In this document: positions 2,762 to 62,542 of the stretch, in pieces | Layout: every line of letters begins with the position of its first letter | Position numbering within the stretch: the first letter of the stretch is position 1 | Origin: an uncultured Candidatus Saccharibacteria bacterium | Lineage (GTDB): Bacteria > Patescibacteriota > JABMPQ01 > JAQVVF01 | Direction of reading: 5' to 3' | Assembly (NCBI GenBank): GCA_964574655.1 | Contig: CAZNOH010000001.1 | Coordinates: 329,852 to 393,851 of the forward strand | Length of the DNA: 64,000 nucleotides | Translations under genes and position numbers: made by a program | Notes under the pieces: model-generated | Database searches by the model: none | What the model was told of the DNA's origin: nothing | What the model saw: the letters and a program-made list of their open reading frames with translations, nothing else

Positions 2762-4306
2762 ATGAGAGCAGATCAAATTAAAAATAGAAAAGATAGGATT
2801 TGTTATCGGCTGTATGAAATATTGCCAGGCTTTTTGTCTTGGGGAGTTTTGTTTGGTAGTATAGTTTTATCTTTCATACATCCTGTTTGGGTAGCTATTT
2901 TTATTATTTGTTTTGATGTTTATTGGTTGATAAAAGTGCTGTATTTGGCAGTGTATTTGCTTGTTTCTTATCGAAGGTTAAAAAAGAATGAAAAAGAAGC
3001 ATGGCTCACAAATTGCAAAAAATTGAATCCTACTGACAGGCCAAAATTTGAAGAGATCTATCATCTGGTTATTATTCCAATGGTTTTTGAAGATATTGAA
3101 ATTGTTAAGCAGACTTTTCAAGCTTTAATTTGTGCAAACTATCCGAAAGATAAGATGATTGTGGTTTTGGCAACTGAAGAGAGGGCAGGAATTTGGGCTT
3201 GCAAGGTTGCTGATCGGATAAAAGCGGAATTTGGCGATAAATTTTATCATTTTCAAGTAACAAAACATCCAGATAATATTATTGGCGAGTTAAAAGGCAA
3301 AGGATCTAACGAAACTTGGGCAGCAAAAGAAATTCGTAAATTTATTGATGAAAAAGGATTGTCTTATGAAAGTGTAATTACATCTGTGTTTGATGTTGAT
3401 ACTTGCGTACATCCAGAATATTTTGGCGTTTTGACTTATAAATTTTTGACTGTTCCTGATCATTTGCATGCTTCTTTTCAACCAGTGCCAATGTTTTTTA
3501 ATAATCTTTGGGATTCTCCGGCGTTAATGAGAATCGTGGCAATGAGTACGACTTTTTGGATGCTGATGGAGCAAGGAAGGCCAGAAAAATTGTATACTTT
3601 TTCTAGCCATAGTATGAATTTTAAAACTTTGACTGAAATTGGATTTTGGGAAACCGATGTGGTGTCTGAGGATTCAAGAATATTTTGGCAGTGTTTTAAT
3701 TATTATAATGGCAATTATCGTTGCGAGCCTTTGTTGATTCCTGTTTATATGGATACAGTTTTGGCAGGCACTTTTTGGCAAAGCGTTGTAAATCAATACA
3801 AGCAACAAAGAAGATGGGCATATGGAGCAGAAAATATTCCTTATGTTTTAACTAGATTTTCAAAAAATAAAAAGATTCCATTTTTTAAAAAGCTTGATCA
3901 TGGTTTTTGGGTGGTTGAGGGCATGTTTTCTTGGGCAACAAGCTCAATAATAATTTTTATGGCTGGCTGGTTGCCATTGTTTGTAGGTGGAGAGGCTTTT
4001 TCAAAATCATTATTAGCTCAAAATTTGCCTTATGTGACGCAAATATTAATGACAATGGCAATGTTGGGCATGATCGTTTCTGCTACTCTCAGCATGTTTA
4101 TGCTTCCTCCAAGGCCAAAGAGACATGGGCAACACAAAATATTATTTATGTTGTTGCAATGGATTTTATTGCCGATTTCAACAATTTGTTTGGGTGCTTT
4201 TCCAGCATTAGATGCGCAAACTAGATTAATGTTTGGAAAATATATGGGATTCTGGGTGACTGAAAAGTCAAGAAGGCGTGAGCCAGAAGTAAAAAGTCAA
4301 AATTAA
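2762..4306 (+). CDS. membrane-bound family-2 glycosyltransferase (processive, cellulose-synthase-like)
   Basis: N- and C-terminal TM helices; cytoplasmic domain with DxD-like (FDVDT) and QxxRW motif (QQRRWAYG). Confidence 0.55.
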   Translation: MRADQIKNRKDRICYRLYEILPGFLSWGVLFGSIVLSFIHPVWVAIFIICFDVYWLIKVLYLAVYLLVSYRRLKKNEKEAWLTNCKKLNPTDRPKFEEIYHLVIIPMVFEDIEIVKQTFQALICANYPKDKMIVVLATEERAGIWACKVADRIKAEFGDKFYHFQVTKHPDNIIGELKGKGSNETWAAKEIRKFIDEKGLSYESVITSVFDVDTCVHPEYFGVLTYKFLTVPDHLHASFQPVPMFFNNLWDSPALMRIVAMSTTFWMLMEQGRPEKLYTFSSHSMNFKTLTEIGFWETDVVSEDSRIFWQCFNYYNGNYRCEPLLIPVYMDTVLAGTFWQSVVNQYKQQRRWAYGAENIPYVLTRFSKNKKIPFFKKLDHGFWVVEGMFSWATSSIIIFMAGWLPLFVGGEAFSKSLLAQNLPYVTQILMTMAMLGMIVSATLSMFMLPPRPKRHGQHKILFMLLQWILLPISTICLGAFPALDAQTRLMFGKYMGFWVTEKSRRREPEVKSQN

Positions 4307-4388
4307 AAAATAAAAAGTTACAAGTAAAAATTAAAAAGAACTGCATTCGTTTTTTACTTTTGCCTTTTTATTTTTAACTTTTTAATTT

Positions 4389-6041: not shown

Positions 6042-6080
6042 CTACCCAACTTTAGTTGGGGTTCGGAAAGCTTTAGTTTT
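6042..6080. repeat. REP-like element: CTAC + hairpin CCAACTTTAGTTGGGG + TTCGGAAAGCTTTAGTTTT tail, immediately 3' of amidohydrolase gene
   Basis: Family members at 15097, 31798, 34267 with compensatory stem changes. Confidence 0.6.
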
Positions 6081-6134
6081 CATGACTTGGAAATTAAGAA
6101 ATTGACTAATTAAATTGGTTGGATTATTCTGATT

Positions 6135-8624: not shown

Positions 8625-8700
8625 TTTAAATACAAAAAATTCTAAATTCTAAACACAAAATTCTAAATAAACTCAAAAAATTAAATTACAAAATTGCGAT
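8625..8700. repeat. intergenic AAATTCTAAAT / AAATTACAAAAT repeat cluster (inverted copies at 8735..8765)
   Basis: aaattctaaattctaaacacaaaattctaaataaactcaaaaaattaaattacaaaattg; same units occur in-frame inside secA. Confidence 0.5.
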
Positions 8701-8776
8701 TATGGCGTTGGTTTTGGTAATTTTTATTTTGTATTTTTAATTTATTTAGAATTTAGGATTTAGAGTTTTTAAAAGA

Positions 8777-15096: not shown

Positions 15097-15139
15097 CTAC
15101 CCAACTTTTGTTGGGGTTCGGCAAACTTTAGTTTGCAGG
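15097..15139. repeat. REP-like element CTAC-CCAACTTTTGTTGGGG-TTCGGCAAACTTTAGTTTGCAGG
   Basis: Member of the 6042 family, 3' of FG-GAP phosphoesterase gene. Confidence 0.6.
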
Positions 15140-15144
15140 AGGTT

Positions 15145-15183: not shown

Positions 15184-16122
15184 ATGAATAATTTTTTCGA
15201 AAAATGCGAACGAAATGTTAGTTTAAGTGAACATACAACATTTAAAATTGGCGGACCAGCTGATTACTTTTTTGTAGCAAAAAATCAGGAAGATTTAATT
15301 GAGGCGTTGAAGGTAGCACAGGAAGAAAAAATTGATTATTATATTCTAGGCGCTGGGTCAAATGTGTTAATTTCAGATGATGGTTTTAGAGGCTTGATAA
15401 TTAAAATAGAGATTACTGATTTGAATTTAGAGAATAATATTATAAAGGCAGGTGCTGGTGTTGCAGTTGGAAAAATCGTGAGTTCAGCTTTAGATAATAA
15501 TTTGACAGGCGTTGAATTTTGGACAGGAGTGCCTGGAACAATTGGCGGGGCAATTTTTGGAAATGCTGGAGCTTATGGAAAAGACGCAAAAGATGTCTTA
15601 AAAAGTGTGACTTATTATGATATTACTGAAAACAAAATAATCAAGAAAGAAATTAGCGAGCTTGGTTTTTCTTATCGATCCAGCGAATTTAAAGAAGATA
15701 AAGATAAAATTATTTTGTCTTGTGAAATTAAATTAGAAAAAGGCGATAAAAATAAGATAATCGCTGAAATGTCGGATATTGCAAAAAAACGAGTTTCTAA
15801 AATTCCTGTTGAACAAAGCGCTGGTTCAGTTTTTAAAAATGTAGTTTTAAAAGAATTAAGAATAGAGAATAGAGAATTGAGAAAATACTTGAAAGAATTT
15901 GTACATGGAAAGATTCCTGTTGCATTATTAATTGAAAAATGTGGATTAAAAGGTAAGCAAGTTGGTGGCGCAAAAGTTTCAGAAAAGCATGCTAATTTTA
16001 TAGTGAATACTGGTAGCGCAAAAGCAAAAGATGTGCTAGAGTTAGTTGAAATAGTAAAAAAGAGCGTGAAGGAAAAGTTTGGTGTAGAGTTAGAGCTGGA
16101 GAACATTTTAGTTGGATTCTGA
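15184..16122 (+). CDS. murB: UDP-N-acetylenolpyruvoylglucosamine reductase
   Basis: FAD-binding HTTFKIGGPADYF, GAGSNVL, C-terminal MurB domain. Confidence 0.8.
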   Translation: MNNFFEKCERNVSLSEHTTFKIGGPADYFFVAKNQEDLIEALKVAQEEKIDYYILGAGSNVLISDDGFRGLIIKIEITDLNLENNIIKAGAGVAVGKIVSSALDNNLTGVEFWTGVPGTIGGAIFGNAGAYGKDAKDVLKSVTYYDITENKIIKKEISELGFSYRSSEFKEDKDKIILSCEIKLEKGDKNKIIAEMSDIAKKRVSKIPVEQSAGSVFKNVVLKELRIENRELRKYLKEFVHGKIPVALLIEKCGLKGKQVGGAKVSEKHANFIVNTGSAKAKDVLELVEIVKKSVKEKFGVELELENILVGF

Positions 16123-17023: not shown

Positions 17024-17116
17024 TTATTATTGTTATTCTGTAGCTTTGCGAGGAATCCCAAAATTATTTTTAATAACGGGATCTCTCGCCGCGGCTCGAG
17101 ATGACAGAAATTTTTT

Positions 17117-19960
17117 ATGGCATTTAATTTTTTAAAAAAAATATTTGGTGATCCAAATAAGCGAGTTTTAGATCAGCTCGCTCCTTTGGTTGAAAAAATA
17201 AATTCATTAGAGCTGGAAATAAAGAAACTATCGGCTGATGAATTAAAATCTAAAACTCAAGAATTAAAATCGGAATTAAAAAATGGCAAGACTCTAGATG
17301 ATATTTTGCCGAAAGCTTTTGCATTGGTTCGTGAAGCTTCAAAAAGAACAACAAAGATGCGACATTTTGATGTTCAGCTTTTGGGTGGAATAGTTCTTCA
17401 TCAAGGAAAGATTTCGGAAATGAAAACTGGTGAAGGAAAAACATTAGTTGCGACATTGCCATTATATCTTAATGCTTTGTTAGGCAAGGGCGCGCATTTA
17501 GTAACTGTAAATGATTATTTGGCAAGACGTGATACTGTTTGGATGGGACAGATATATAATGCATTAGGGTTAAGTGTTGGCTGTATTCAGCATGAGCAGG
17601 CATTTGTTTATGATCCTAGTTTGAAAAATCCTAAATCCCAAATCCTAAATCCTAAACAAATTACAAATAACAAATTACAAAATTCTAATGACGACGAAAC
17701 TGCTGGCGAACTTGATGAAGAGCGGGATGAGATGGGAAGTTTTAAGGTTTTTCATGAATTTTTACGGCCAGTTACTCGTAAAGAAGCATATTCGGCTGAT
17801 ATCACTTATGGAACAAACAATGAATATGGTTTTGATTATTTGAAAGATAATATGGTTGCAGAATTGTCTGAAAAAGTGCAAAGAGATTTTAATTTTGCGA
17901 TTGTTGATGAAGTTGATTCTATTTTGATTGATGAAGCGAGGACTCCTTTAATTATTTCTGCACCGGCTGAAGAGGCAGTTGATTTGTATAATCAATTTGC
18001 TAGATTAATTCCAAAATTAGAAGAAAACAAAGATTATAATATTGATGAAAAAATGCGGGCAGCAACTTTGACAGATGCTGGAATTGCAAAATTGGAAAAG
18101 ATGTTGGGTTTAAAAAATATTTATGAGGAAAAGGGCATTGAGGTTGTACATCATATAGAACAAGCTTTGAAAGCTCATACTCTGTTCAAAAGGGATAAAG
18201 ATTATGTTGTTAAAAATAATGAAGTAATGATTGTTGATGAATTTACTGGAAGATTAATGCCAGGCAGACGTTTTTCAGAAGGTCTGCATCAAGCATTGGA
18301 AGCAAAAGAAAATGTGGCGATTCAAAGAGAATCAAGGACATTGGCAACGATTACTTTCCAAAATTATTTTAGGATTTATAAAAAATTAGCTGGCATGACT
18401 GGAACAGCGGCAACGTCAGCTGAAGAATTTTCGAAAGTTTATAAATTAGATGTTGTTATAATTCCTACAAACAAACCGTTGGTCCGTAAAAATTTGAATG
18501 ATTTGGTTTATAAAAATGAATTAGGAAAATATATTGCAGTTGTTAAAGATGTGAAAGAGAGGAATAAATTAGGCCAGCCAGTTTTGATTGGCACTATATC
18601 GATTGAAAAAAATGAAAGACTGGGTCAGATGCTAGAAGATGAAGGAATAAAATGCAATGTTTTGAATGCTAAGAACCATGAAAAAGAAGGAGAAATAATT
18701 GCTCAAACTGGAAAAATGGGAGCTGTGACTGTTGCTACAAATATGGCAGGTCGTGGTGTAGATATTATTTTAGGCGGAGTGCCTTTGAATAAAGAAGAAG
18801 CCAAAAAAGTTTGCGATTTAGGAGGTCTTCATGTGATTGGAACAGAAAGGCATGAAGCACGAAGAATTGACAATCAGCTAAGAGGACGCGCCGGACGTCA
18901 AGGCGATCCTGGTTCTTCGCAATTTTTTGTTTCCATGGAAGATGACTTGATGAGAATATTTGGTTCAGACAGAATGAAAGGAATGATGGATACTTTGAAA
19001 TTGCCAGATGATCAGCCAATTGAACATGGATTGATTTCAAGATCAATTGAAGCAGCACAAAGCAAAGTTGAAGGTAATAATTATGATATTAGAAAGCATG
19101 TTTTGGAATATGATGATGTAATGAATAAACATCGCGAAGTTATTTATAAAAAGCGTAATAATGTTTTATTGGCATGGGAGCGTGAAAAATTAAAAGCTAC
19201 AAATTCTAAATCTCAAATCTTGCCTACTGGTAGGCAAGTAGATGACAAATTACAAAATACGAATTCGAAACAACTGACAACTAAAGAAATAGTTTTACAA
19301 TATGTTGAAGATGAGATTGATCAGGTTGTAACTAATCATACTGGAGCAGAAGAAGTAGAAAATTGGAATTGTGAAGAAATTTATGAATCGATTAATTCTA
19401 TTTTTTCAGTTTCAAGCGAGATCCATATTGAATTAAAAAATTTAGCTAAGAAAGCTGGAAATGAAAAAAATGGCGCGGAAGCGAGGACAATAATTATAAA
19501 TTATCTTCTAGGCTTGATGAAGAAGGCTTACGATGTTAAAGAAAAAGAAAATGGATATGAAGGAATGCGACAGATTGAAAGAGCAGTATTGCTTCGAACT
19601 ATTGATTCTTTGTGGATGGATCATCTTGATGCTATGGAGTATATGAGAGAGGGAATTGGTTTAAGAGGTTTTGGTCAAAAGGATCCATTAGTTGAATATA
19701 AAAAAGAAGCATTTGGAATGTTTGGCGCTTTATTGGCAGAAATTCAAAATCGAGTTGTTTACACAATTTTTAAAGTTGGTATTGTTACACAGCAAGTATC
19801 TCCGATGCAAAAAGCAAAACAGCAAATGCAAACTTCTGGAGCAGAAAAAGGCGAAGATTCTAAAATTTTGCCGGAACGGGTTGATGAGATAGGTAGAAAT
19901 GAGCCGTGTCCTTGCGGTTCAAAAAGAAAATATAAGAAATGTTGTGGTAAAGATAAATAA
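17117..19960 (+). CDS. secA: preprotein translocase ATPase SecA, with two in-frame repeat-derived insertions
   Basis: DEAD motor motifs, C-terminal Zn finger CPCGSKRKYKKCCG; insertions at 17625..17700 and 19193..19285. Confidence 0.9.
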   Translation: MAFNFLKKIFGDPNKRVLDQLAPLVEKINSLELEIKKLSADELKSKTQELKSELKNGKTLDDILPKAFALVREASKRTTKMRHFDVQLLGGIVLHQGKISEMKTGEGKTLVATLPLYLNALLGKGAHLVTVNDYLARRDTVWMGQIYNALGLSVGCIQHEQAFVYDPSLKNPKSQILNPKQITNNKLQNSNDDETAGELDEERDEMGSFKVFHEFLRPVTRKEAYSADITYGTNNEYGFDYLKDNMVAELSEKVQRDFNFAIVDEVDSILIDEARTPLIISAPAEEAVDLYNQFARLIPKLEENKDYNIDEKMRAATLTDAGIAKLEKMLGLKNIYEEKGIEVVHHIEQALKAHTLFKRDKDYVVKNNEVMIVDEFTGRLMPGRRFSEGLHQALEAKENVAIQRESRTLATITFQNYFRIYKKLAGMTGTAATSAEEFSKVYKLDVVIIPTNKPLVRKNLNDLVYKNELGKYIAVVKDVKERNKLGQPVLIGTISIEKNERLGQMLEDEGIKCNVLNAKNHEKEGEIIAQTGKMGAVTVATNMAGRGVDIILGGVPLNKEEAKKVCDLGGLHVIGTERHEARRIDNQLRGRAGRQGDPGSSQFFVSMEDDLMRIFGSDRMKGMMDTLKLPDDQPIEHGLISRSIEAAQSKVEGNNYDIRKHVLEYDDVMNKHREVIYKKRNNVLLAWEREKLKATNSKSQILPTGRQVDDKLQNTNSKQLTTKEIVLQYVEDEIDQVVTNHTGAEEVENWNCEEIYESINSIFSVSSEIHIELKNLAKKAGNEKNGAEARTIIINYLLGLMKKAYDVKEKENGYEGMRQIERAVLLRTIDSLWMDHLDAMEYMREGIGLRGFGQKDPLVEYKKEAFGMFGALLAEIQNRVVYTIFKVGIVTQQVSPMQKAKQQMQTSGAEKGEDSKILPERVDEIGRNEPCPCGSKRKYKKCCGKDK
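17625..17700. repeat. in-frame tandem-repeat insertion in secA (AAATCCTA/AAATCCCA x4 then ACAAATTACAAATAACAAATTACAAAAT)
   Basis: Units match intergenic repeat at 8625..8700; encodes NPKSQILNPKQITNNKLQNS. Confidence 0.55.
19193..19285. repeat. second in-frame repeat insertion in secA containing perfect palindrome CTTGCCTACTGGTAGGCAAG flanked by ACAAATTCTAAATCTCAAATC and ACAAATTACAAAAT
   Basis: Shares ACAAATTACAAAAT with first insertion and the 8690 intergenic copy. Confidence 0.55.
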
Positions 19961-21455: not shown

Positions 21456-23174
21456 ATGTCAAGATTTAATCGGATATTGCGGATATTAGATATTCGGATA
21501 TTAGGATATTTGATTTTGGTTGTGCCGATTTTTTTTGGTTTTCGGGTTTTGAGTGTATATGCATCTGACTATATTCAGCCGGAGATCAAAGTTTACAGCG
21601 AGGCTGGCGATAAGATCGAGGCTGATTTTTTAGCTTTTGACAAGAATTTTAAAGGCGGAGCTTATCCAGCAATTGGAGATATCAATAATGATGGAAAGGA
21701 TGAAATTGTTATTGGCGCAGGATATAGTGGCGGGCCACAAGTTAGGATTTTTGATAAAAAAGGAAATTCAATTGGCATTAATTTTTTTGCTTTTGAAAAA
21801 GAATACACATCTGGTGTTAATGTTGCAGTTTGTAATTTGGATAACAAAAAAAGAAATGAGATTGTAGTTGGCAAGGCATTGCAAGATAAAAGCGAGATTA
21901 GAATTTATAGAATAACTAAAAAAAATAAAGCTAAATTTTTAAGCAAGACTATTGTTTATGACGAAAGTTTTGAAGGCGGAGTAAATATTGCTTGCAGTGA
22001 TTTAAATGATGATAAAAAAGATGAAATTATAACAGGACCTGGACCGACAGGGCGTAGTCATATCAGAACTTTTAAATATAAATCAGCTAAGAAAGAGATT
22101 GTGAATTTCGGTTTATCATTTTTTGCTTTTAACGATGATTTTATGGGAGGAGCAACAGTAAGTGCTTATAATAGCAAAATAATTGTAGGACAGGCCACAA
22201 AAGGTGGATTGGCTTATGTTTATGAAGTGAATCGTAAAGATGTGAAGAAGTTTGCTAAGCTAGGTACTTTGGATAAAATGACGCCAAAATTAGTTAGGAA
22301 GATTTTAGCATTTAAAAATTTTTCAGGAGGCGTTAATGTTGCTATTGGAAAATTGGATTTAGGAAAATCTAAGATTTTAATTTCTCCAGTTTCAAGCGGT
22401 GGCCCAACGGTTGAAATATTTAATTTAAATGGTAAATTATTAAAGAATTTCAGTGTATATTCTGGTGATTTTAAGGGGGGAGTTAGAATCGCGAATTCAC
22501 ACAAATCTGTCACAAATAGCACAAATAATAATAAAACTGATTTTAATTTTGTTGTAGCGCCTGGTTTTAAATTGGGAATTAAATGTGAAAGGAATTGTGT
22601 GGCTTTAACTCTTGATGATGGTTATACTTCTGCTAGTGGATCGTTTGATCGAATTTTAGATACCTTGAAAGCTAAAAAAGTGCATGCTACTTTTTTTATG
22701 TTGGGAGTAGTAATGAAGGGCTATCCTGATCGAATGTTGCGACTTGATAGAGAGGGTCATCAGTTAGCAAATCATAGCTATTCTCATGGCAGTTTTACAT
22801 TGATGTCAACTTCGCAAATAGTAGAGGAAATAACTTATACTGATCAGATTGCTAAAAGTATTACTGGCAAAGAGACTAAGCCATATTTTCGTTATCCTGG
22901 TGGCAGTCATAATTCTTCAACTGATGCAATTGTGAAAAATTTAGGCTATAAATATTTTGGTTGGACTGCTTCGGCTGGCGATACAGGATCTGGTGTTACA
23001 GTACAATCTGCGACTTGGGGAATGCTGTGGAATTTGCATGATGGCTCGATTATTTTGGCTCATACGATGAAAGATCAGACAGCAGGTGCATTGCCTACTG
23101 TTATTGATGCAATAAGAAATGCTGGATATACTTTGGCAACACTTGATGAAATGAGTAGTTATTGGGGAACGTAA
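21456..23174 (+). CDS. secreted FG-GAP repeat protein with C-terminal polysaccharide deacetylase (NodB/CE4) domain; true start probably ~21510-21522
   Basis: FG-GAP units (GDINNDGKDEIVIGAGYSGGPQVRIF...); CE4 motifs TLDDGY, NHSYSHG; 5' end of ORF overlaps GATATT array. Confidence 0.6.
   Translation: MSRFNRILRILDIRILGYLILVVPIFFGFRVLSVYASDYIQPEIKVYSEAGDKIEADFLAFDKNFKGGAYPAIGDINNDGKDEIVIGAGYSGGPQVRIFDKKGNSIGINFFAFEKEYTSGVNVAVCNLDNKKRNEIVVGKALQDKSEIRIYRITKKNKAKFLSKTIVYDESFEGGVNIACSDLNDDKKDEIITGPGPTGRSHIRTFKYKSAKKEIVNFGLSFFAFNDDFMGGATVSAYNSKIIVGQATKGGLAYVYEVNRKDVKKFAKLGTLDKMTPKLVRKILAFKNFSGGVNVAIGKLDLGKSKILISPVSSGGPTVEIFNLNGKLLKNFSVYSGDFKGGVRIANSHKSVTNSTNNNKTDFNFVVAPGFKLGIKCERNCVALTLDDGYTSASGSFDRILDTLKAKKVHATFFMLGVVMKGYPDRMLRLDREGHQLANHSYSHGSFTLMSTSQIVEEITYTDQIAKSITGKETKPYFRYPGGSHNSSTDAIVKNLGYKYFGWTASAGDTGSGVTVQSATWGMLWNLHDGSIILAHTMKDQTAGALPTVIDAIRNAGYTLATLDEMSSYWGT
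21466..21515 (+). promoter_or_regulatory. GATATT tandem array CGGATATTGCGGATATTAGATATTCGGATATTAGGATATTTGAT (9-nt period)
   Basis: Five units read directly. Confidence 0.35.
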
Positions 23175-23345
23175 TTAAATAACAAAATAACGAAATTATA
23201 AATAACTAAATTGCTGGCTTGAATATTGGATATTTTTGTGCTATTATGATGTTGTAAGAAGACGTAATAGTTCTATTGTTACATTGTTACATTGCTAACT
23301 TTTTTTGCTTAGTAATTAAACAATTTAATAATTATAATTATAACT

Positions 23346-28479: not shown

Positions 28480-30273
28480 ATGTTAAGAACTCATACTTGC
28501 GGGCAATTGAGCCTGAAAGATAATAAAAATAAAGTTAAATTGGCTGGATGGGTAAATTCCAGGCGCGATCATGGCGGGTTGATATTTTTGGATTTGCGGG
28601 ATCGATACGGAATTACGCAGGTTGTTTTTGATCCAAAAAATAAAGAAGCTTTTGATTTGGCAGATAAAGTAAGAGATGAATTTGTTGTTTTAGTTAATGG
28701 TTTAGTTAGAGAAAGACCTGAAGAAATGATTAATAAAAAAATTAAAACTGGCGTGATAGAAATTTTAGCTGATAAAATTGAAGTTTTAAGTACTTCAAAG
28801 ACTCCGCCCTTTACTATTAATACTGAAAAAGAAGTCAACGAGGATTTAAGATTAAAGTATAGATTTTTGGATTTGCGACATGCAAGACTTCAGAATATTT
28901 TGAAAAAAAGAGATGAAATGATTACTTATATACGTGAATATTTTCACAAGAATGATTTTATTGAAGTTCAGACTCCAATTCTAGCAAATTCTTCTCCAGA
29001 AGGAGCAAGAGATTATTTAGTTCCATCAAGAGTTTATCCGGGAAAGTTTTTTGCTTTGCCTCAAGCTCCACAACAATTCAAACAATTATTGATGGTTGCA
29101 GGATTAGATAAATATTTTCAAATTGCGCCATGCTTTCGCGATGAAGATCCAAGAGCTGATCGTCATCCTGGCGATTTTTATCAAATTGACATGGAGATGA
29201 GCTTTGTTGATCAAGAAGATGTTTGGAAAATGATTGAACCTTTAATGATCGAACTAACTGAAAAATTTTCAGATAAAAAAATAATTACAAAGCCTTTTCC
29301 AAGATTTACTTACAAAGAAATAATGAGCAAATACGGATCTGACAAACCTGATTTGAGATTTGATTTTGAAATAAAAGATGTGTCTAAAATAGTTGAAAAA
29401 TCTGGTTTCAAAGTTTTTAGCGAGGTCTTAAATAATAAAGGCGTGGTTTACGCGTTGAAAATTACTGATGGCGCCAAGTTTTCAAGAAGCGAGATTGATA
29501 GTTTAACAGAGATTGCAAGAAGTAAAGGCGCAAAAGGTTTGGCTTATATTGTCTATGGAGCTTCGGAAATCGGAGATCAGAAATCGGAAACTTCTGGTTT
29601 AAAATCGCCGATCCTGAAATTTTTGTCGGACGATGAAGTTAAAGGAATTACTGATTTAACGAAAGCGAAATCTGGTGATATCGTATTTTTTGGTGCTGAT
29701 GTTTGGAAAACTGCTTGTATGTCTTTGGGAGCTGTTAGAGAAGAATGTGGCAGGAAATTAAATTCAAAAGATCCAAAAAAAGCTGCTTGGCTTTGGATTT
29801 GTGATTATCCAATGTATGACATGTCAGAGCTTGAGCATGGTAAGATTGATTTTTCCCACAATCCTTTTTCAATGCCACAAAGAGGCTTTGAAGCTTTAGA
29901 GAAAAAAGATCCATTAGAAATATTGGCTTATCAATATGATATTGTTTGCAATGGCTATGAAGTGAGCTCTGGAGCAATTAGAAATCATGATCCAAAAACA
30001 ATGTACAAAGCCTTTGAGATTGCTGGATATTCTAAAGAAGATGTTGATAAAAAATTCGGCCATATGATCAAAGCTTTTGAATTTGGCGCTCCTCCTCATG
30101 GTGGTTGTGCTCCTGGCTTAGATAGGTTAATGATGATTTTGTTAGAATGTCCAAGCATCCGTGATATTTATGCTTTTCCAAAAAATGGCAAAGCTCAAGA
30201 TGTAATGCTTGGCGCACCATCAACTGTTTCTGAAAAACAATTGAAAGAATTGCATCTGAAGATAGTTGATTAG
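28480..30273 (+). CDS. aspS: aspartyl-tRNA synthetase
   Basis: Class II aaRS motifs (FRDEDPRADRHPGDFYQIDMEMSF, GGCAPGLDRLMMIL), OB-fold N-term. Confidence 0.9.
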   Translation: MLRTHTCGQLSLKDNKNKVKLAGWVNSRRDHGGLIFLDLRDRYGITQVVFDPKNKEAFDLADKVRDEFVVLVNGLVRERPEEMINKKIKTGVIEILADKIEVLSTSKTPPFTINTEKEVNEDLRLKYRFLDLRHARLQNILKKRDEMITYIREYFHKNDFIEVQTPILANSSPEGARDYLVPSRVYPGKFFALPQAPQQFKQLLMVAGLDKYFQIAPCFRDEDPRADRHPGDFYQIDMEMSFVDQEDVWKMIEPLMIELTEKFSDKKIITKPFPRFTYKEIMSKYGSDKPDLRFDFEIKDVSKIVEKSGFKVFSEVLNNKGVVYALKITDGAKFSRSEIDSLTEIARSKGAKGLAYIVYGASEIGDQKSETSGLKSPILKFLSDDEVKGITDLTKAKSGDIVFFGADVWKTACMSLGAVREECGRKLNSKDPKKAAWLWICDYPMYDMSELEHGKIDFSHNPFSMPQRGFEALEKKDPLEILAYQYDIVCNGYEVSSGAIRNHDPKTMYKAFEIAGYSKEDVDKKFGHMIKAFEFGAPPHGGCAPGLDRLMMILLECPSIRDIYAFPKNGKAQDVMLGAPSTVSEKQLKELHLKIVD

Positions 30274-31797: not shown

Positions 31798-31872
31798 ACG
31801 ACCCAACTTTTCACCCTGCGGGTGATCAACCGAAGGTTGAAGTTGGGGTTCGGCAAACTTTAGTTTGCAGGG
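31798..31872. repeat. REP-like element with nested hairpin: CGACCCAACTT-[CACCCTGCGGGTG..]-AAGTTGGGG-TTCGGCAAACTTTAGTTTGCAGGG
   Basis: Same tail as 15097 copy; 3' of preceding gene. Confidence 0.55.
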
Positions 31873-32892: not shown

Positions 32893-33564
32893 ATGCGAGA
32901 ACAAGCACCAATTCATGATATGAGCATAGAAACTGGAATAGAATCCAAGCCTGGTTTGGAATTGGCGAAAGGCGAGGGATTTGATGCTGTTGTTGATATA
33001 GCTAATTATTTGGCTGGAAAAATTGAAAGAGATGAACCAATAAAAGTTGAACAGGTGATGAATTTGGACGAAGCTTTGGGTAAAATTAAAATTGATGTCG
33101 GTGGTGATCAAATGACATTGGCGGAAGCAAGGCGAATTCCTGATTTGGGGAGCAATCTGGAAATTTATAAAATGTTTGAAAGGCAAGATAGGAGGGGTTT
33201 AGGACTATTCAAATCTGATTATGAACAAATGACATATTTGCCTATAAAAATTGCAAGAATTTTAATTCGAAGGTCAGCCGGATCAGTCGAATATTTGTAT
33301 TTAGGCAATATAAAAGTAATATCTGATGAAGTCGCGCAAGAGATAAGCAATTTTAGAGGAACAGTGCTATTGAATGGATTGGAGACATTGACTGACATCC
33401 AAGCTGATCATTTGGCTAATATATATGGTGTTCTTACGTTGTATGGTTTGAAAAATATTTCTGATGCTGGTTTAGGATCTTTATTGTGGTCAAATGCGAG
33501 TTTGGATGTAAGGTTTTCGAAAGATATTCAAAAAAAGTTTGGATTATTTAGTAGAACAAAATGA
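32893..33564 (+). CDS. hypothetical protein with leucine-rich-repeat-like C-terminus; paralog of 678..1334
   Basis: PGLELAKGEGFDAVVDIANYLAGKIERDE...LDEALGKIKIDVGGDQMTLAEARRIPDL; C-term LxxLxxLTDIQADHLANIYGVLTLYGLKNISDAGLGSL. Confidence 0.5.
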   Translation: MREQAPIHDMSIETGIESKPGLELAKGEGFDAVVDIANYLAGKIERDEPIKVEQVMNLDEALGKIKIDVGGDQMTLAEARRIPDLGSNLEIYKMFERQDRRGLGLFKSDYEQMTYLPIKIARILIRRSAGSVEYLYLGNIKVISDEVAQEISNFRGTVLLNGLETLTDIQADHLANIYGVLTLYGLKNISDAGLGSLLWSNASLDVRFSKDIQKKFGLFSRTK

Positions 33565-34280
33565 TAGTTTATAAAGTTAAATTAGAAAAATTTGAAGGAC
33601 CTTTGGATTTACTTTTAGATTTGATTGAAAAAGAAAAAATGGATATTACCCATGTTTCTCTTTCAAAAGTAACAGATGATTATCTAAAGTATCTAGAAAG
33701 TTCAGAGGGAATTAATCCAAGCATCTTGGCTGATTTTTTGCATGTGGCTGCTCAATTAATTTTAATAAAGTCAAGAAATCTTTTGCCAGAAATTAATTTA
33801 GGAACAGATGAGGAAGTGTCAGCAGCTGAATTGCAAGCTAGATTGATGCAATACAAAAAATATAAAGATTTGTCATTAAAGATTCAAGAATTATATGGCA
33901 AGAACATTTCTTTTGAGCAAAAATTTAGTATGCAAAAAATTGATGCTTTTTATCCTGGCAAGACTTTGGATTTTAAAAATATGAATTTAGCTTTGGTTGA
34001 TTTGTTAGGCAGATTTGAAAAGCTAGTTGTTTTGGAAAAGAAAATAATTAAAAAGGCTGTTTCGATTAAAGAAAAAATTGTTTATATAAAAAGTTTGATT
34101 TTAAAACAGGCAAAATTTAAATTTCATGATTTGATAAAAAATAAAAAATCAAAAACTGAAACAATTGTTTCTTTTTTAGCATTATTAGAATTAGCAAAAC
34201 AGCATTTTTTGTTTGTACAGCAAGACAAAATTTTTGGCGATATTTCAATAAATAATTCTTCGGATTCTACCCGGCTTTAG
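33561..34280 (+). CDS. scpA: segregation and condensation protein A
   Basis: KLEKFEGPLDLLLDLIEKEKMDITHVSLSKVTDDYLKYL. Confidence 0.75.
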   Translation: MIVYKVKLEKFEGPLDLLLDLIEKEKMDITHVSLSKVTDDYLKYLESSEGINPSILADFLHVAAQLILIKSRNLLPEINLGTDEEVSAAELQARLMQYKKYKDLSLKIQELYGKNISFEQKFSMQKIDAFYPGKTLDFKNMNLALVDLLGRFEKLVVLEKKIIKKAVSIKEKIVYIKSLILKQAKFKFHDLIKNKKSKTETIVSFLALLELAKQHFLFVQQDKIFGDISINNSSDSTRL

Positions 34281-34336
34281 CCGAGGGGTCGGAAAGCTTT
34301 AGCTTTCGTCACTTGTGAACTGAAGTTCACCGACCC
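34267..34336. repeat. REPIN-like doublet: CTACCCGGCTTTAGCCGAGGGGTCGG ... CCGACCCTTTGGCTAAAGCCAAGTAG (two inverted REP copies), overlapping scpA stop
   Basis: Second copy is reverse complement of first with compensatory changes; GTAG/CTAC at outer ends. Confidence 0.6.
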
Positions 34337-34370
34337 TTTGGCTAAAGCCAAGTAGAAATAAAAAAATATT

Positions 34371-35600: not shown

Positions 35601-35677
35601 TGTCATCCCGAACCGCTGTGAGGGATCCCGTTATCGAGTAAATAATCACGGGATTCTTCGCTTCGCTCAGAATGACA
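35601..35677. repeat. 77-nt hairpin element with TGTCATYCTGAG-type terminal inverted repeats (copy A)
   Basis: TGTCATCCCGAACC...CTCAGAATGACA; inverted copy at 36297..36375. Confidence 0.55.
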
Positions 35678-36295: not shown

Positions 36296-36296
36296 T

Positions 36297-36375
36297 GTCA
36301 TTCTGAGGCCGTAGCCGAAGAATCTCGTGATTTTTGTTTAACGACGGGATCCGTAGCTTTGGCTCAGGATGACAG
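36297..36375. repeat. 79-nt hairpin element with 12-bp terminal inverted repeats TGTCATTCTGAG/CTCAGGATGACA (copy B, inverted relative to A)
   Basis: Approximately reverse complement of copy A. Confidence 0.55.
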
Positions 36376-38310: not shown

Positions 38311-38405
38311 CAAAGTTTTATAGAATTGCTAAATTGTTTCATTGTTAAATTGTTAACATGAAAAATATTAGCAATTTAACAATTTAGCAATTAAGCTATA
38401 AATTT

Positions 38406-38871: not shown

Positions 38872-38900
38872 GTAGAGACGCCCAAATTGGGCGTCTGTAC
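38872..38900. repeat. REP-like GTAG palindrome GTAGAGACGCCCAAATTGGGCGTCTGTAC (identical copy at 62511)
   Basis: Perfect 11-bp stem; related copy GTAGAGACGTTGCAATGCAACGTCTCTAC at 635..663. Confidence 0.6.
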
Positions 38901-38912
38901 AAAAATAAAAAA

Positions 38913-40461: not shown

Positions 40462-41545
40462 ATGCAGGATTTATTAACAAAATTAGAAAAAATAAAACAG
40501 GACATTGCGAAAGTAATGGATCGTCTTTGATATTGTTAGTAAAAAAGAAAAAATAGCAAAATTAGAAAAAGATATCCAAAGCCCTGATTTTTGGAAGAAT
40601 ACCAGAAAAGCAAAAGCAATAATGCGTGATCTTGATAGTCTGAAAAAATTTGTTGAATTGTGGGAAGGATTAATGCTTGAAACAAAAGATTTAATTGAAG
40701 TGATTGATATTGCAAATGAAGACGAATCGTTGAAAAAAGAAATAGAACAGCGTTTTCTAAAGCTGAACAAAAAATTTGAACAGCATGAATTTGAAATAAT
40801 GATGTCCGGTGATTATGATTTGAACAATGCAATTTTGATGATTCATTCTGGTACTGGTGGTACAGAAGCGCAGGATTGGGCAGAGATGTTACTTCGAATG
40901 TATTTGCGATATTGTGAAAAAAGAGATTGGCAGACTGAAATTTTGGATAAAATAATGGGCTCGGAGGCAGGAATAAAAAGTGCTATAGTAAAGGTGACTG
41001 GAAATTATGCTTACGGCTATTTGAAGGCTGAAGCTGGAATTCATCGTTTGGTTCGTCAATCGCCGTTTGATTCTGATCATGCTAGGCACACATCTTTTGC
41101 TTTAGTTGAAGTGATTCCAGAATTGTCTTCTGATGTCAATATAAAAATAGATTCAAAAGATTTACGAATTGATACATATAGATCAAGTGGAGCAGGAGGT
41201 CAGAGTGTTAATAAAACAAGCTCAGCAGTCAGAATTACTCATTTGCCATCAGGCATTGTTGTTGCTTGTCAGAATCAAAGATCTCAGATTCAGAATAGAG
41301 AAACAGCAATGATGATTCTGAAATCAAGGCTTTATGAAAAAGAATTAAAAAAGAAAAAAGAAGAAAAAGCAAAATTGCGAGGCGAGCATCTTGAGGCAAG
41401 TTGGAGCAATCAAATCAGATCTTATGTCTTGCATCCGTACAAAATGGTAAAAGATCATCGGACAGAATATGAAGTTGGTGATGCAGAAGCTGTGTTAGAT
41501 GGTGATTTAGATGGATTTATTGAGGCGTTTCTGAAGATAAAATAA
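40462..41545 (+). CDS. prfB: peptide chain release factor 2 with programmed +1 frameshift at CTT TGA (40525..40530)
   Basis: Frame-0 MQDLLTKLEKIKQDIAKVMDRL then TGA; +1 frame continues DIVSKKEKIAKLEKDIQSPDFW...; SPF and GGQ motifs downstream (SPFDSDHARHTSF, SGAGGQSVNKTSSAVR). Confidence 0.85.
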
Positions 41546-49237: not shown

Positions 49238-49513
49238 ATGTATTATCTTTATATTTTAGAATGCGCTGATAAGACTTTATATACTGGAATTACAACAGAT
49301 TTGAAGCGAAGATTGATTGAGCATAATAATTCTAAATTAGGTGCAAAATATACATGTGCTAGAAGACCAGTAAAATTAGTTTATTCTAAAAAATTTAAAA
49401 CCAGATCATCTGCTAGTAAGGAAGAAGCTAGAATTAAAAAATTGAAAAAATCGGATAAATTGGAATTGATTCGTAGGGGTTCAACCCTGTCATTCGACAG
49501 GGCAAGTATTTGA
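49238..49513 (+). CDS. GIY-YIG nuclease domain protein (YhbQ/UPF0213-like); 3' end overlaps REP element
   Basis: YYLYILECADKTLYTGITTDLKRRLIEHN...EEARIKKLK. Confidence 0.6.
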   Translation: MYYLYILECADKTLYTGITTDLKRRLIEHNNSKLGAKYTCARRPVKLVYSKKFKTRSSASKEEARIKKLKKSDKLELIRRGSTLSFDRASI

Positions 49514-49521
49514 ACCCCTAC
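49473..49521. repeat. REP element GTAGGGGTTCAA-[CCCTGTCATTCGACAGGG CAAGTAT]-TTGAACCCCTAC
   Basis: GTAG...CTAC ends; same family as 51063 and 51375. Confidence 0.65.
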
Positions 49522-49536
49522 TGTTTTATTTTTGTC

Positions 49537-49565
49537 TTGAAATTTGGTCTGAATTGGCGTAATAT
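49537..49565 (+). promoter_or_regulatory. sigma70-like promoter for tRNA-Gln: -35 TTGAAA, 17-nt spacer, -10 TAATAT
   Basis: Read directly; ends 12 nt before tRNA 5' end. Confidence 0.45.
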
Positions 49566-49577
49566 GATCTTGATTAT

Positions 49578-49648
49578 TCCGGGATCATCTAATGGTAGGA
49601 TAGCAGGTTCTGGACCTGCTTATCTTGGTTCGAATCCAAGTCCCGGAG
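49578..49648 (+). tRNA. tRNA-Gln (anticodon CTG)
   Basis: Acceptor TCCGGGA/TCCCGGA 7 bp, anticodon stem GCAGG/CCTGC with loop TTCTGGA, T-arm CTTGG-TTCGAAT-CCAAG; manual fold, D-arm short. Confidence 0.65.
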
Positions 49649-49662
49649 TGAAATGTAATTTT

Positions 49663-51045
49663 ATGTTAAAACACCACTTTTTCACGCCAGAGTACATGAA
49701 TGTTTTTGATCTGGATCAAATCTACATGACGAGCTCAATGTGGCATGACACAAAAATGAAAGATACTTGGGCGACTTTTGATCTGATTGTCAGAGACATG
49801 CCAAAGAATAGAAACTTTTTAATTTTTACTGGCTTGGAAGAAATGGCAACACATCTGCAAAATTGGAAATATACTGATGAGCAAATTGCAATGCTTAAGA
49901 AAATGAAATTAATTTCTGATAATTTTGCAAAATATTTAAAGAATTTAAAATTTGAAGGCGATGTTTATGCAATGCCAGAAGGCAGTGTTTTTTTTAATAA
50001 TGAGCCAGTTGTCAGAATTACAGCGCCTTTAATTCAATGCAATCTGTTGACAGCATTTTTAATTACTTCTTTGAGTTCTAATACAATTTTTTCTTCAAAA
50101 TTTGTAAGATCAGTTATTGCTGCCAAAGGTAAAAGTGTAATTGGTCCAAGCTCAGTGAGAGCGCAAGGTTTTGAATCTGCTTTCAAAGCGCAAAGAAGCG
50201 CCTATATTGTTGGAAGCAAACAAGTGCCTTCTCCGGTTGTTAGAGATTTTCTGAACATACCAATGGGCGATAACGTAACAATTGCTTATCATGCTTTTAT
50301 TAATTCTTATGAATCTGAACAAGAAGCGATGCAAGTTGCCGCAGATCATGCAAAAGTTGATCTTGCATTAATGGTGGATACTTATGATTATGATAAAGGT
50401 ATTGAAAACGCAATCGTAATTGGAAAGCAGTATAAAAGAATGGGCAAGAATTTAAAAATAGTCGTGGATAGCGGTGATCTATATGAGAATGTAAGCAAAG
50501 TTAGAAAAAGGCTTGATAAGGTTGGTTTGCAAAATATTAGAATTATAGTTGCGAGCAATTTAGATGAATATAAAATTACTGATTTAATGAAAAAGAAAAT
50601 TCCTGCTAATATTTTTATCGTTGGTACTGAAGCTGTGACGTCATCAGATGTTCCAAAACTAGAAGTTGTTTATAAAATTTCTGAAATAATTGAAAAAAGT
50701 GGCAAGATAATTAATAAAATGAAATTGTCGCCAGGCAAGATGAGCTTGCCAGGCCGAAAACAGATTTATAGAAAATTTAAAAATAATTATTTTGAAAAAG
50801 ATGTTATTGGTTTGGAAGGCGAGAAGGGATTGGGCGAGCCATTATTGAAACCGATATTTAAAAAAGGAAAATTAGTTCATGATTTGCCAAGTGTTTTAAA
50901 AATTAGAGATTTTGTGAAAGAACAATTAAAACAGTTGCCAAAAAGATATTTAGAAATTGAAAAGACTTATAAATATCCAGTTGAAATTAGTGATAAATTA
51001 AATAAATTACTTGATAAAACAAAAAAAGAAATTCAGGCGAGATAA
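49663..51045 (+). CDS. pncB: nicotinate phosphoribosyltransferase
   Basis: FDLDQIYMTSSMWH N-term, VDTYD and VVDSGDL motifs; upstream part of ORF-track ORF overlaps tRNA and is rejected. Confidence 0.6.
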   Translation: MLKHHFFTPEYMNVFDLDQIYMTSSMWHDTKMKDTWATFDLIVRDMPKNRNFLIFTGLEEMATHLQNWKYTDEQIAMLKKMKLISDNFAKYLKNLKFEGDVYAMPEGSVFFNNEPVVRITAPLIQCNLLTAFLITSLSSNTIFSSKFVRSVIAAKGKSVIGPSSVRAQGFESAFKAQRSAYIVGSKQVPSPVVRDFLNIPMGDNVTIAYHAFINSYESEQEAMQVAADHAKVDLALMVDTYDYDKGIENAIVIGKQYKRMGKNLKIVVDSGDLYENVSKVRKRLDKVGLQNIRIIVASNLDEYKITDLMKKKIPANIFIVGTEAVTSSDVPKLEVVYKISEIIEKSGKIINKMKLSPGKMSLPGRKQIYRKFKNNYFEKDVIGLEGEKGLGEPLLKPIFKKGKLVHDLPSVLKIRDFVKEQLKQLPKRYLEIEKTYKYPVEISDKLNKLLDKTKKEIQAR

Positions 51046-54294: not shown

Positions 54295-54395
54295 TAATAA
54301 TATTTAATATTCAGTATTCAATTTTCTGATTTATGCTAAGAACTTAATTATATAATTGAATATTAAATATTGAATATTAGCGATTAATCTAGACG

Positions 54396-61528: not shown

Positions 61529-61687
61529 TTATATATTACAAATCATATTGAGAATAGGCGAAAGCCTATTTTTTATAACTGTTTTTTGTTAAAATAAACG
61601 TGAATTGCGAAATGGTTTAATTGCTAAATTGTTAATAAAAATAATTATTTTAACAATTTGGCAATCTAACAATTAAATAATATAGTT

Positions 61688-62073: not shown

Positions 62074-62514
62074 ATGCGGATCGAAAGCGTATTTCAAAAT
62101 GGAGAAAAAATTCCTTCCAAATATACTTGTGATGGCGAGAATATTAATCCGCCTTTAAAATTTAGCGATGTACCAGAAAATACAAAAAGTTTGGCTATTA
62201 TTTTTGATGATCCTGATTCACCGTCAGGTACTTGGACTCATTGGACTATTTTTAACATTGATCCAAAAGTAATTGAAATAATAGAAAATAATGTGCCTGA
62301 AAATTCTGTTTTAGGCAAAACAACTTTTAGTGATGTTAAATATGGCGGACCTTGTCCTGGATCTGGCGAGCATCGATATGTTTTTAAGTTGTTTGCTTTG
62401 GATATGGTGTTAGATCTAAAACAAGGGGCTGATATTTCTGAGTTAGAAAAAGCAATTGAGGGACATATAATAGAAAAAGCGGAGTTGATGGGAAAGTATG
62501 AACGAATTATGTAG
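62074..62514 (+). CDS. YbhB/YbcL family PEBP-like protein
   Basis: DDPDSPSGTWTHW and GPCPGSGEHRYVFKLFALD motifs. Confidence 0.7.
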   Translation: MRIESVFQNGEKIPSKYTCDGENINPPLKFSDVPENTKSLAIIFDDPDSPSGTWTHWTIFNIDPKVIEIIENNVPENSVLGKTTFSDVKYGGPCPGSGEHRYVFKLFALDMVLDLKQGADISELEKAIEGHIIEKAELMGKYERIM

Positions 62515-62539
62515 AGACGCCCAAATTGGGCGTCTGTAT
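62511..62539. repeat. REP-like palindrome GTAGAGACGCCCAAATTGGGCGTCTGTAT; its GTAG supplies the TAG stop of the PEBP gene
   Basis: Identical to 38872 copy. Confidence 0.6.
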
Positions 62540-62542
62540 TAA

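Follow-up and report, generated by a model that had tools for sequence, protein, structure and literature searches.

A secA gene of an uncultured Candidatus Saccharibacteria bacterium carries, in frame, two segments composed of short units that also occur between genes of the same contig, raising the question of whether these segments arose in place, are old parts of the protein or were derived from repeats dispersed elsewhere. The gene lies within a 64 kb stretch of AT-rich DNA (GC ~0.32; positions 329,852 to 393,851 of contig CAZNOH010000001.1, assembly GCA_964574655.1), the whole of which was analysed and is referred to here as the window. We consider it likely that the hypervariable cores of two SecA surface loops are in-frame copies of two dispersed non-coding repeat families, a hairpin with arms built of heptamers (family 1) and a hairpin of 20 or 21 nt (family 2). 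Judging from the sequences, insert 1 is an A-rich arm almost identical to the family 1 master, and insert 2 reads as a decayed arm with a family 2 copy midway.

Two Unaligned Regions of the SecA Protein

The secA coding sequence (17117..19960, + strand), recognized from the list of open reading frames (ORFs), PDB matches and SecA Pfam domains, encodes a protein of 947 amino acids (aa) that matches solved SecA structures (PDB 1tf2, E=6.5e-247, over three stretches). The Pfam set, determined on the identical protein P0001, is complete (PF07517, PF01043, PF21090, PF07516 and PF02810), and this content of DEAD motor, preprotein cross-linking domain, helical scaffold/wing and SEC-C places the product in the SecA family; its top protein matches are SecAs of Patescibacteria (Candidate Phyla Radiation, CPR). 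Compared with the SecA of Bacillus subtilis, two stretches, residues 157-220 and 685-721, are left unaligned.

The first of these, site 1 (17585..17776, + strand), is a CPR-wide insertion in nucleotide-binding domain 1, at a position that we take to be between the Walker A and Walker B motifs. Residues 157-220 stand against residues 158-166 of the B. subtilis protein (9 residues), that is, a gain of 55 aa. This length agrees with the ~55 aa given by the initial annotation, but most of it belongs to a conserved CPR insertion, found in 24 of the 26 Patescibacteria SecAs aligned (alignment A1), in which a hypervariable core is enclosed by conserved flanks of the pattern AFxYDP...DxERDxxGSFKVxxxYLRPVxRK. 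The repeat-coded, lineage-specific part amounts to ~23 of the 55 extra residues, about 169-192 (peptide LKNPKSQILNPKQITNNKLQNSN). It corresponds to the insert 1 core (17621..17697, + strand), which is assigned to the A-rich arm of family 1 on the basis of Tandem Repeats Finder (TRF), nhmmer and a matrix that scores flanking positions only (see below). TRF resolves it into AAATCCT x4.4 at 17626-17656 (91% matches) followed by ACAAATT x3.7 at 17656-17681; the unit is a heptamer (AAATCCT / AAATCCC, period 7) and not the octamer that had been proposed.

Site 2 (19169..19279, + strand; residues 685-721, unaligned against B. subtilis 621-626) is a variable loop that follows the long scaffold helix and precedes the helical wing domain. 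Here, residues 685-721 replace residues 622-625 of B. subtilis (4 residues), insert 2 accounting for ~33 extra aa, and the site is hypervariable in alignment A1. Insert 2 as a whole (19199-19267, + strand) has the appearance of a decayed arm with a nested hairpin. Its left heptamers, ACAAATT CTAAATC TCAAATC (ACAAATTCTAAATCTCAAATC, 19199..19219, + strand), lead into a hairpin of 20/21 nt, CTTGCCTAC-TG-GTAGGCAAG(T), at 19219..19239 (+ strand), which is read LPTGRQV and is a variant of the dispersed sequence CTTGCCTACCGGCAGGCAGG. Six bases separate its 20-mer, CTTGCCTACTGGTAGGCAAG (19219-19238, + strand), from the right heptamers ACAAATT ACAAAAT ACGAATT CG (ACAAATTACAAAATACGAATTCG, 19245..19267, + strand), and the latter are joined to 17656-17681 of insert 1, at 81% identity, by repeat family D1. 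The 20-mer had been described as a perfect palindrome; its 9-nt arms are indeed perfectly paired, but around a non-symmetric TG, which leaves 2 mismatches to its own reverse complement.

The claim that both insertions share their units with intergenic DNA is borne out by exact words: AAATTACAAAAT occurs in the window at 8683, 17672, 19247 and 56361, and AAATTCTAAAT at 8637, 8658, 8744 (- strand), 19201 and 24686. Neither word is mere low-complexity background in the window, since both lie far above dinucleotide-shuffle expectation: with one mismatch allowed, they occur 18 times against 6.9 expected and 32 times against 16.7, respectively, counts above those of all 100 shuffles.

A Family of Heptamer-Armed Hairpins

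A scan of metagenome contigs found the insert 1 23-mer, AAATCCTAAATCCTAAACAAATT, exactly in at least 120 loci; the matches listed comprise 116 distinct contexts, with host GC of 0.31-0.65 (median 0.45). The consensus of the left arm is approximately AAATCCTAAATYCN-AAATCCTAAATCCTAAACAAATT-CAAAATTCAAAATTCAAAAC, the arms being AT-rich, degenerate heptamers. An inverted arm follows at a distance of at most 260 nt in 34 of the 116 listed contexts, and the resulting hairpins are about 90-190 nt long (91-189 nt among the 26 best-matched copies).

Insert 1 matches the arm profile in nhmmer with E=6.7e-12, a value that is partly circular, the 23-mer used to recruit the profile being that of the window itself. 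For this reason, the window (127,844 positions) was also scored with a matrix built from external copies only, using 56 flanking columns and ignoring those of the 23-mer. The two top sites, at 32.6 bits each, are the right arm of an intergenic hairpin and insert 1, followed by an unrelated site at 21478-21563 (25.7 bits), insert 2 (25.3 bits), in which the 20-mer occupies the centre of the match, and the intergenic hairpin's left arm (25.2 bits); the median score of family members is 34.8 bits. All the sequences that the initial annotation had grouped, namely, the two inserts, the intergenic repeat at 8625..8700 and its inverted copy at ~8735, are thus among the best sites of the window, and their assignment to one family holds under an independent test.

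The intergenic hairpin (8635..8770), located between a Mur-ligase gene and an FtsW-family gene, is a complete, diverged copy recognized by its fold and arm matches. It folds at -33.7 kcal/mol (z=-5.45; 0 of 200 shuffles as good), and its right arm matches the arm profile with E=8.3e-4. Whereas this copy has two inverted arms, the secA inserts have the A-rich arm only.

The same one-arm rule applies to the copies found within genes elsewhere. ORFs extending for at least 50 codons on each side span 13 of the 116 listed contexts; all 13 embedded arms read ..ILNPKQI.., the sole open frame of the 23-mer on that strand, and none is accompanied by a right arm. At least 10 conserved proteins other than SecA have the 23-mer within their reading frame. 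Pfam assigns the arm-bearing ORFs to nine families: class I aminoacyl-tRNA synthetase, P-type ATPase, SpoU methylase, topoisomerase I, GT4 glycosyltransferase, DUF3105, TrmD, FemAB and MnmA; in the arm-bearing TrmD, the insert amounts to 15 residues relative to 3ky7.

Full hairpins, by Rfam placement, occupy helix tips of structural RNA genes at three loci (L131, L162 and L201; loci outside the window are numbered in this way). In the 23S rRNA gene of L131, an insertion of 151 nt takes the place of a 6-nt loop near model position 165, the 23S rRNA gene of L162 holds two copies of the arm family, and in the RNase P RNA gene of L201 ~112 nt are inserted between model positions 136 and 137. The L131 gene (5907-6162, 8250-8767) also contains a group I intron and a second insertion, of 121 nt, near model position 230.

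Furthermore, in 8 of 10 cases, an ORF of the PF05635 family (E=7e-16) is enclosed between the two arms; it starts inside the left one (..ILNPKQIQMT.IQN.KQYDLE.RT..) and stops a few bases short of the right one. A likeness of PF05635 to the Avd protein of diversity-generating retroelements is on record (PMC10053308), and CPR rRNA insertions with PF05635 (23S_rRNA_IVP) ORFs have been described, most of them sited at the tops or bases of stem-loops (PMC11270868). The arm family thus behaves as an element of the intervening-sequence (IVS) type with short "empty" and gene-bearing forms. Arm-bracketed genes for PF05635 four-helix-bundle proteins were seen at L152 (1978-2457), L233 (10410-10890), L143, L151, L199, L227, L229 and L246; at L152 and L233, flanking translations place the unit, apparently, between leuC-like and leuD-like genes.

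A Dispersed 21-Nucleotide Hairpin Nested in Insert 2

A search of the window for the 20-mer hairpin with up to 3 mismatches returned the secA copy only, with none expected by chance, and its multi-copy status was therefore tested outside the window. Among species-representative genomes, the family 2 pattern CTTGCYTACYGGYAGGCARG is present in at least 120 loci; 114 of the 124 copies listed are identical to the master CTTGCCTACCGGCAGGCAGG, and most variants keep pairs 1-7 with 20-14. The variant of the window is also present in L123. The hosts belong to more than 10 phyla (Bacteroidota, Ignavibacteriota, many Patescibacteria lineages, Omnitrophota, Planctomycetota, Nitrospirae, Elusimicrobia, WOR-3 and Proteobacteria among them), some genomes having several copies, and include records not labelled as metagenome-assembled (Terrimonas sp. 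NS-102 and Flagellimonas oceanensis 40DY170) as well as a metagenome-assembled genome (MAG) in a single chromosome record (OZ255825.1). A heptamer array adjoins 22 of 123 listed copies against 41 of 2400 random sites, and many of the listed copies sit in loops of other palindromic repeats. Viral contigs yielded 4 family 2 loci and 0 family 1 arm loci, so phage carriage is not an evident route.

Long ORFs contain 14 of the 124 listed copies, in both orientations and several frames (LPTGRQV, LAYRQAG, LPAGRQG, CLPVGK). Pfam assigns six of these ORFs to MraW, GcvT, GT4, amidase, 2-oxoacid dehydrogenase E1 and ValRS, and the hairpin-bearing GcvT has 7 additional residues at this place relative to 1yx2. 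At site 2 of the secA gene of L002, whose SecA is 74% identical to that of the window, heptamers are combined with CTTGCTTACCGGCAGGCAGG, and the arm profile aligns straight through except for one clean gap of 21 nt, ccttgcttaccggcaggcagg, between ...CCCAAA and CAAATT.... The arm itself is recognizable at site 2 of secA in L002 (nhmmer E=2.9e-6) and L007 (E=3.5e-4). The size of 21 nt for family 2 is based on the L002 gap and the 7 residues of GcvT; the heptamer phase across the 20-mer shows 0 or 1 extra base in 3 informative cases, too few to separate 20 from 21 nt. Together with the loci of the 23-mer and its in-frame copies in other proteins, the L002 insertion sustains the proposal that a repeat family enters coding DNA while keeping frame.

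Several further repeats were observed in connection with this hairpin. A GC-rich hairpin family, GTAGAGACG...CGTCTCTAC, follows genes at 635-663, 38872-38903 and 62511-62540 of the window, and in L103, an Ignavibacterium MAG, a related sequence, AAAGACGCA...TGCGTCTCTAC, has the 20-mer hairpin within its loop. A MITE-like element (MITE, miniature inverted-repeat transposable element) of ~78 nt with ends TGTCATYCYGA...TCAGRATGACA is present at 35601-35677 and 36296-36374 and, in part, at 17041-17107 upstream of secA; in L031, L034 and L059, elements with ends of the TGTCAT...ATGACA type hold the 20-mer hairpin in the loop. In L113, a Bacteroidetes MAG, a sequence resembling tRNA-Leu seems, by eye, to be split in its D-arm region by the 20-mer hairpin (~820-902).

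Turnover Among Relatives and Effect on SecA

The nearly same DNA is found at site 1 in a more distant SecA (L006, 62% identical), where AAATTCT AAATCCG AAATCCT AAATCCT is followed by AAACAAATTCC and the arm is matched by nhmmer with E=8.6e-15; arm-like remnants at this site also occur in L005 and L007. An unmodified AAATCCT array gives TCC-TAA in each frame. In the window, the codons are TCC-CAA (AAATCCC), and in L006, they are TCC-GAA (AAATCCG), so the in-frame TAA stop has been removed in two different ways.

Closer relatives present another picture. The SecAs of L001, L003 and L004 are 86-87% identical to that of the window, yet sequence and length differ from the window at both sites, with neither the AAATCCT array at site 1 nor the hairpin at site 2. 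The ortholog alignment A1, a check of the kind proposed by the initial annotation to delimit the inserts, thus shows no conservation of the repeat-coded cores even at this distance. The distribution is patchy: the site 1 arm is shared by the window and L006 (62%) and is lacking in the 86-87% relatives, and the site 2 hairpin is shared by the window and L002 (74%) and is lacking in all other relatives.

The effect on the protein was assessed on an AlphaFold model of moderate quality (mean predicted local distance difference test score, pLDDT, 68.7). pLDDT falls below 50 at residues 171-211 and 698-717, while flanking 10-residue blocks mostly average 75-89, and site 2 comes directly after the long scaffold helix 638-696. 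The model thus predicts disordered cores, and their surface location, which the initial annotation had anticipated, is a reading of the model. Given the low pLDDT and the hypervariability in close relatives, both repeat-coded cores, rich in K, N, S, Q, P and I, would be disordered surface filler, tolerated passengers with no role in SecA. The two loops themselves are old CPR features that were not made by the repeats.

Origin of the Inserts

If the cores are indeed copies of the two families, the sequences would not have arisen de novo but would have entered permissive loops that existed beforehand by copying, or been homogenised with other copies in those loops; transposition, recombination or templated copying may each have been the route. 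Frame would be kept by selection and by arithmetic, three heptamers making 21 nt or 7 codons and the hairpin being itself a 21-nt unit, with the in-frame TAA codons presumably removed by point changes (AAATCCC in the window, AAATCCG in L006). The A-rich arm has one open frame, and the sampled consensus right arm has stop codons in all three. A whole hairpin in an mRNA would form long double-stranded RNA and, by analogy with rRNA intervening sequences, a likely substrate of RNase III. Genes would then carry half-elements only because the stops of the right arm bar read-through and the double-stranded RNA is likely to be cleaved.

Several observations weigh against this scenario. The recruitment of the arm profile is partly circular, a concern to which the flank-only score responds, and the heptamers of insert 2 on their own give an arm match that is not significant (nhmmer E=4.1 for the left units, whose 25.3 bits in the flank-only matrix are reached together with the right flank). 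No transposase or other mobilising gene was found with family 1, the sole gene found between arms being PF05635, and a six-frame search of the window and the secA relatives found no PF05635 gene. Of the features of MITEs, inverted arms are present; target-site duplications are not visible where the 26 best-matched hairpins begin and end, and no transposase partner was identified. The 64 kb window holds one hairpin copy and about three arm copies, with no sign of recent movement, and the site 2 hairpin common to the window and L002 may be an old feature that others have lost and not a new insertion. The AlphaFold prediction, moreover, has moderate quality. Finally, other arrays occupy the secA sites of relatives: AAAGAAT and GGAAACA in L003, AAAAAACA in L001 and GGGCTTA x3 at site 2 of L005. 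Such unrelated heptamer and octamer units at the same sites in close relatives imply that local birth of arrays also happens at both sites, and it could explain part of the pattern.

We would go further only tentatively, to the possibility that two undescribed families of ultra-small mobile elements are spreading over many uncultured phyla, one a heptamer-armed hairpin of the IVS type, with an Avd-like PF05635 gene in its full form, and the other a 21-nt hairpin of the type known as small dispersed repeats (SDRs), with a single master in more than 10 phyla. Such elements, perhaps moving as RNA or single strands for which hairpin tips and A-rich arrays are the targets, would enter rRNA, RNase P RNA and spacers and also, as 21-nt-compatible pieces, essential protein genes, and would be a general source of new disordered loops in CPR proteins.

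The main rival to derivation from dispersed families is purely local slippage with a step of 7-8 nt in permissive loops, the intergenic likeness being a product of a composition rich in AT and of the requirement that the frame be open and hydrophilic. That slippage is also at work at both secA sites is clear, as the differing units in close relatives indicate, and murB carries a lineage-specific in-frame array of its own (see below). Tandem arrays in the window are confined to a narrow range of periods: 8 arrays have period 7 and 6 have period 8, where dinucleotide shuffles give ~0.05, and there are none of periods 3-6 and 9-13 (only 7, 8 and 14 occur); apart from a few exceptions, the secA loci of all seven relatives are likewise limited to periods 7 and 8. 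Of the arrays of the window, roughly half of those with period 7 and the majority of those with period 8 lie in or border intergenic DNA, which makes up 12% of it, and they are often arranged as inverted pairs. The overabundance of heptamer repeats in bacterial genomes and the idea of slippage based on the polymerase footprint are already in print, as outlined in PMC4692102 (citing Mrazek 2007). However, slippage does not predict that one 23-mer recurs exactly, its flanks conserved, in at least 120 unrelated contexts, GC-rich hosts included, nor that a matrix of flanks alone picks out the secA inserts, nor that a non-repetitive 20-mer hairpin is identical across more than 10 phyla; it could not repeatedly make this hairpin or the non-periodic junction ...TAAACAAATT.... 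We therefore regard slippage as an unlikely explanation of the inserts as a whole.

It is less probable still that the inserts are ancestral functional parts of CPR SecA, such as flexible linkers or interaction sites, kept by selection and only incidentally similar to repeats. Both loops are present in nearly all Patescibacteria SecAs, the flanks of site 1 are strongly conserved and arm-like remnants recur at the same sites in L005 and L007 (site 1) and L002 and L007 (site 2). Yet the core sequence and length are wholly different among SecAs of 86-87% identity, two of the aligned CPR SecAs (P0022 and P0067) are without site 1, both cores are predicted to be disordered and the same DNA is found in unrelated proteins and RNA genes. 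An assembly or binning artefact that mis-joined repeats into secA, which might be suspected in a contig assembled from a metagenome, repeats being notorious for causing misassembly, is hardly credible given the intact frames, the avoidance of stops by specific substitutions, like inserts at the same loops in independent NCBI, JGI and ENA assemblies and the presence of the hairpin in Terrimonas sp. NS-102, F. oceanensis 40DY170 and the single-chromosome MAG OZ255825.1.

Other Repeats and Features of the Window

The murB gene (15184..16122) contains an in-frame array at 15851-15883, AAGAATT AAGAATA GAGAATA GAGAATT GAGAA, read LKELRIENRELRK, in a MurB loop that is variable in sequence and length across six aligned relatives; the murB genes of L002 and L007 have other heptamer arrays within the gene. 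Short period-7 arrays also lie in the ORFs 28480..30273 (29563-29590), 33561..34280 (34134-34155) and 40622..41545 (41347-41366). Intergenic inverted pairs of heptamers or octamers were seen at 38324-38396, 23177-23294, 61603-61680, 2658-2761, 4287-4388 and 54298-54378, each with distinct units (AATTGTTA, TACGAAT, AAGTAAA, TAATATT and others), and would give long AT-rich hairpins between co-oriented genes. We also considered A-rich heptamers as phasing repeats for DNA bending or as telomere-like repeats (AAATCCC being the complement of TTTAGGG) and rejected both, there being no supporting feature.

Another repeat, of ~45 nt (CTACCCAACTTT.GTTGGGGTTCGGCAAACTTTAGTTTGC), is intergenic at 6043-6090, 15097-15140 and 31800-31870, with a diverged copy at 34281-34340, and matches no Rfam family at gathering score. 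The Rfam scan of the whole window detected tRNA only, with no rRNA and no RNA family over the hairpins. The listed ORF 49510..51045 contains a tRNA gene (49578-49648, 58.2 bits), and its listed start is therefore probably wrong. GC skew is positive in all 2-kb bins and the + strand carries ~90% of the long ORFs; this probably places the window inside one replichore with strong gene co-orientation.

Relation to Known Repeats

Rickettsia palindromic elements (RPEs), which are not known from outside Rickettsia, are translated over their full length of ~105-146 bp. In the families described here, ORFs contain a single arm, the arms are built of heptamers and the hosts belong to many phyla, none being Rickettsia, which sets them apart from RPEs by description. 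What they have in common is a small, non-autonomous palindromic repeat that is found both between genes and in conserved genes, where it adds surface peptides without destroying function; the intergenic and in-frame occurrence of RPEs was reported by Ogata et al. (2000), as summarised in PMC3184786.

The 23S rRNA intervening sequences have a long stem of inverted ends at rRNA helix tips and sometimes a PF05635 ORF, and the arm family has the same features (L131, L162 and L201) but is also found between protein genes and, as single arms, in ORFs. With respect to family 2, the SDRs of Nostocaceae are reportedly 21-27 nt long, fold into hairpins, are embedded in tandem heptamers or mini-transposons and are nested in other repeats. 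All these traits, length and hairpin fold, heptamer or mini-transposon embedding and nesting, are seen in family 2, which we liken to SDRs by description only; unlike SDRs, its listed hosts are all non-cyanobacterial, and it is also in frame in housekeeping genes. The SDRs were described by Elhai et al. (2008, Genome Res 18:1484), a study cited in PMC5861425 and PMC3116915.

Heptanucleotide repeats include the short tandemly repeated repetitive (STRR) sequences of cyanobacteria and the GGGNATC arrays of Xanthomonas and Nostoc (PMC4692102). The arrays of the window resemble these in period 7, intergenic enrichment, the presence of some inverted pairs and variability between close relatives. They differ in being A-rich, with a conserved non-periodic junction, and in being read in frame in genes, the STRR and GGGNATC arrays being G-rich and reported as intergenic. 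The intragenic repeat units of Borgs are said to be multiples of 3 nt and to arise locally, whereas here the unit is of 7 nt, frame requires blocks of 21 nt and the sequences are common to several loci and hosts. Fast-evolving nucleotide tandem repeats in Borg genes likewise add new, intrinsically disordered segments to proteins (PMC9879509).

In-frame repeat insertions (as summarised in PMC3184786), heptamer arrays, rRNA intervening sequences and SDRs are each already known. A full-text literature search with four diagnostic 18-19-mers returned no paper, and in the literature searched, we found no description of the two families, of their ORF copies in CPR and other phyla or of the link between ORF inserts, intergenic hairpins and intervening sequences of RNA genes.

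Implications

Family 1 spans three compartments, being found as an intervening sequence in rRNA and RNase P RNA, as a hairpin between genes and as a loop in proteins. To our knowledge, PF05635 (Avd-like) proteins are widespread and have no known function, and the arm family gives them a concrete genomic partner. We know of no previous report of SDR-type mini-elements from outside Nostocaceae; such elements would extend to many phyla, and the movement of elements of ~21 nt would then be testable through filled and empty sites across thousands of genomes. At least 16 protein families besides SecA carry a family 1 or family 2 element in frame, and repeat-coded segments of this kind should be masked in alignments, phylogenies and structure work. 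The extra, lineage-specific length of conserved CPR proteins may in part stem from colonisation by dispersed hairpin repeats.

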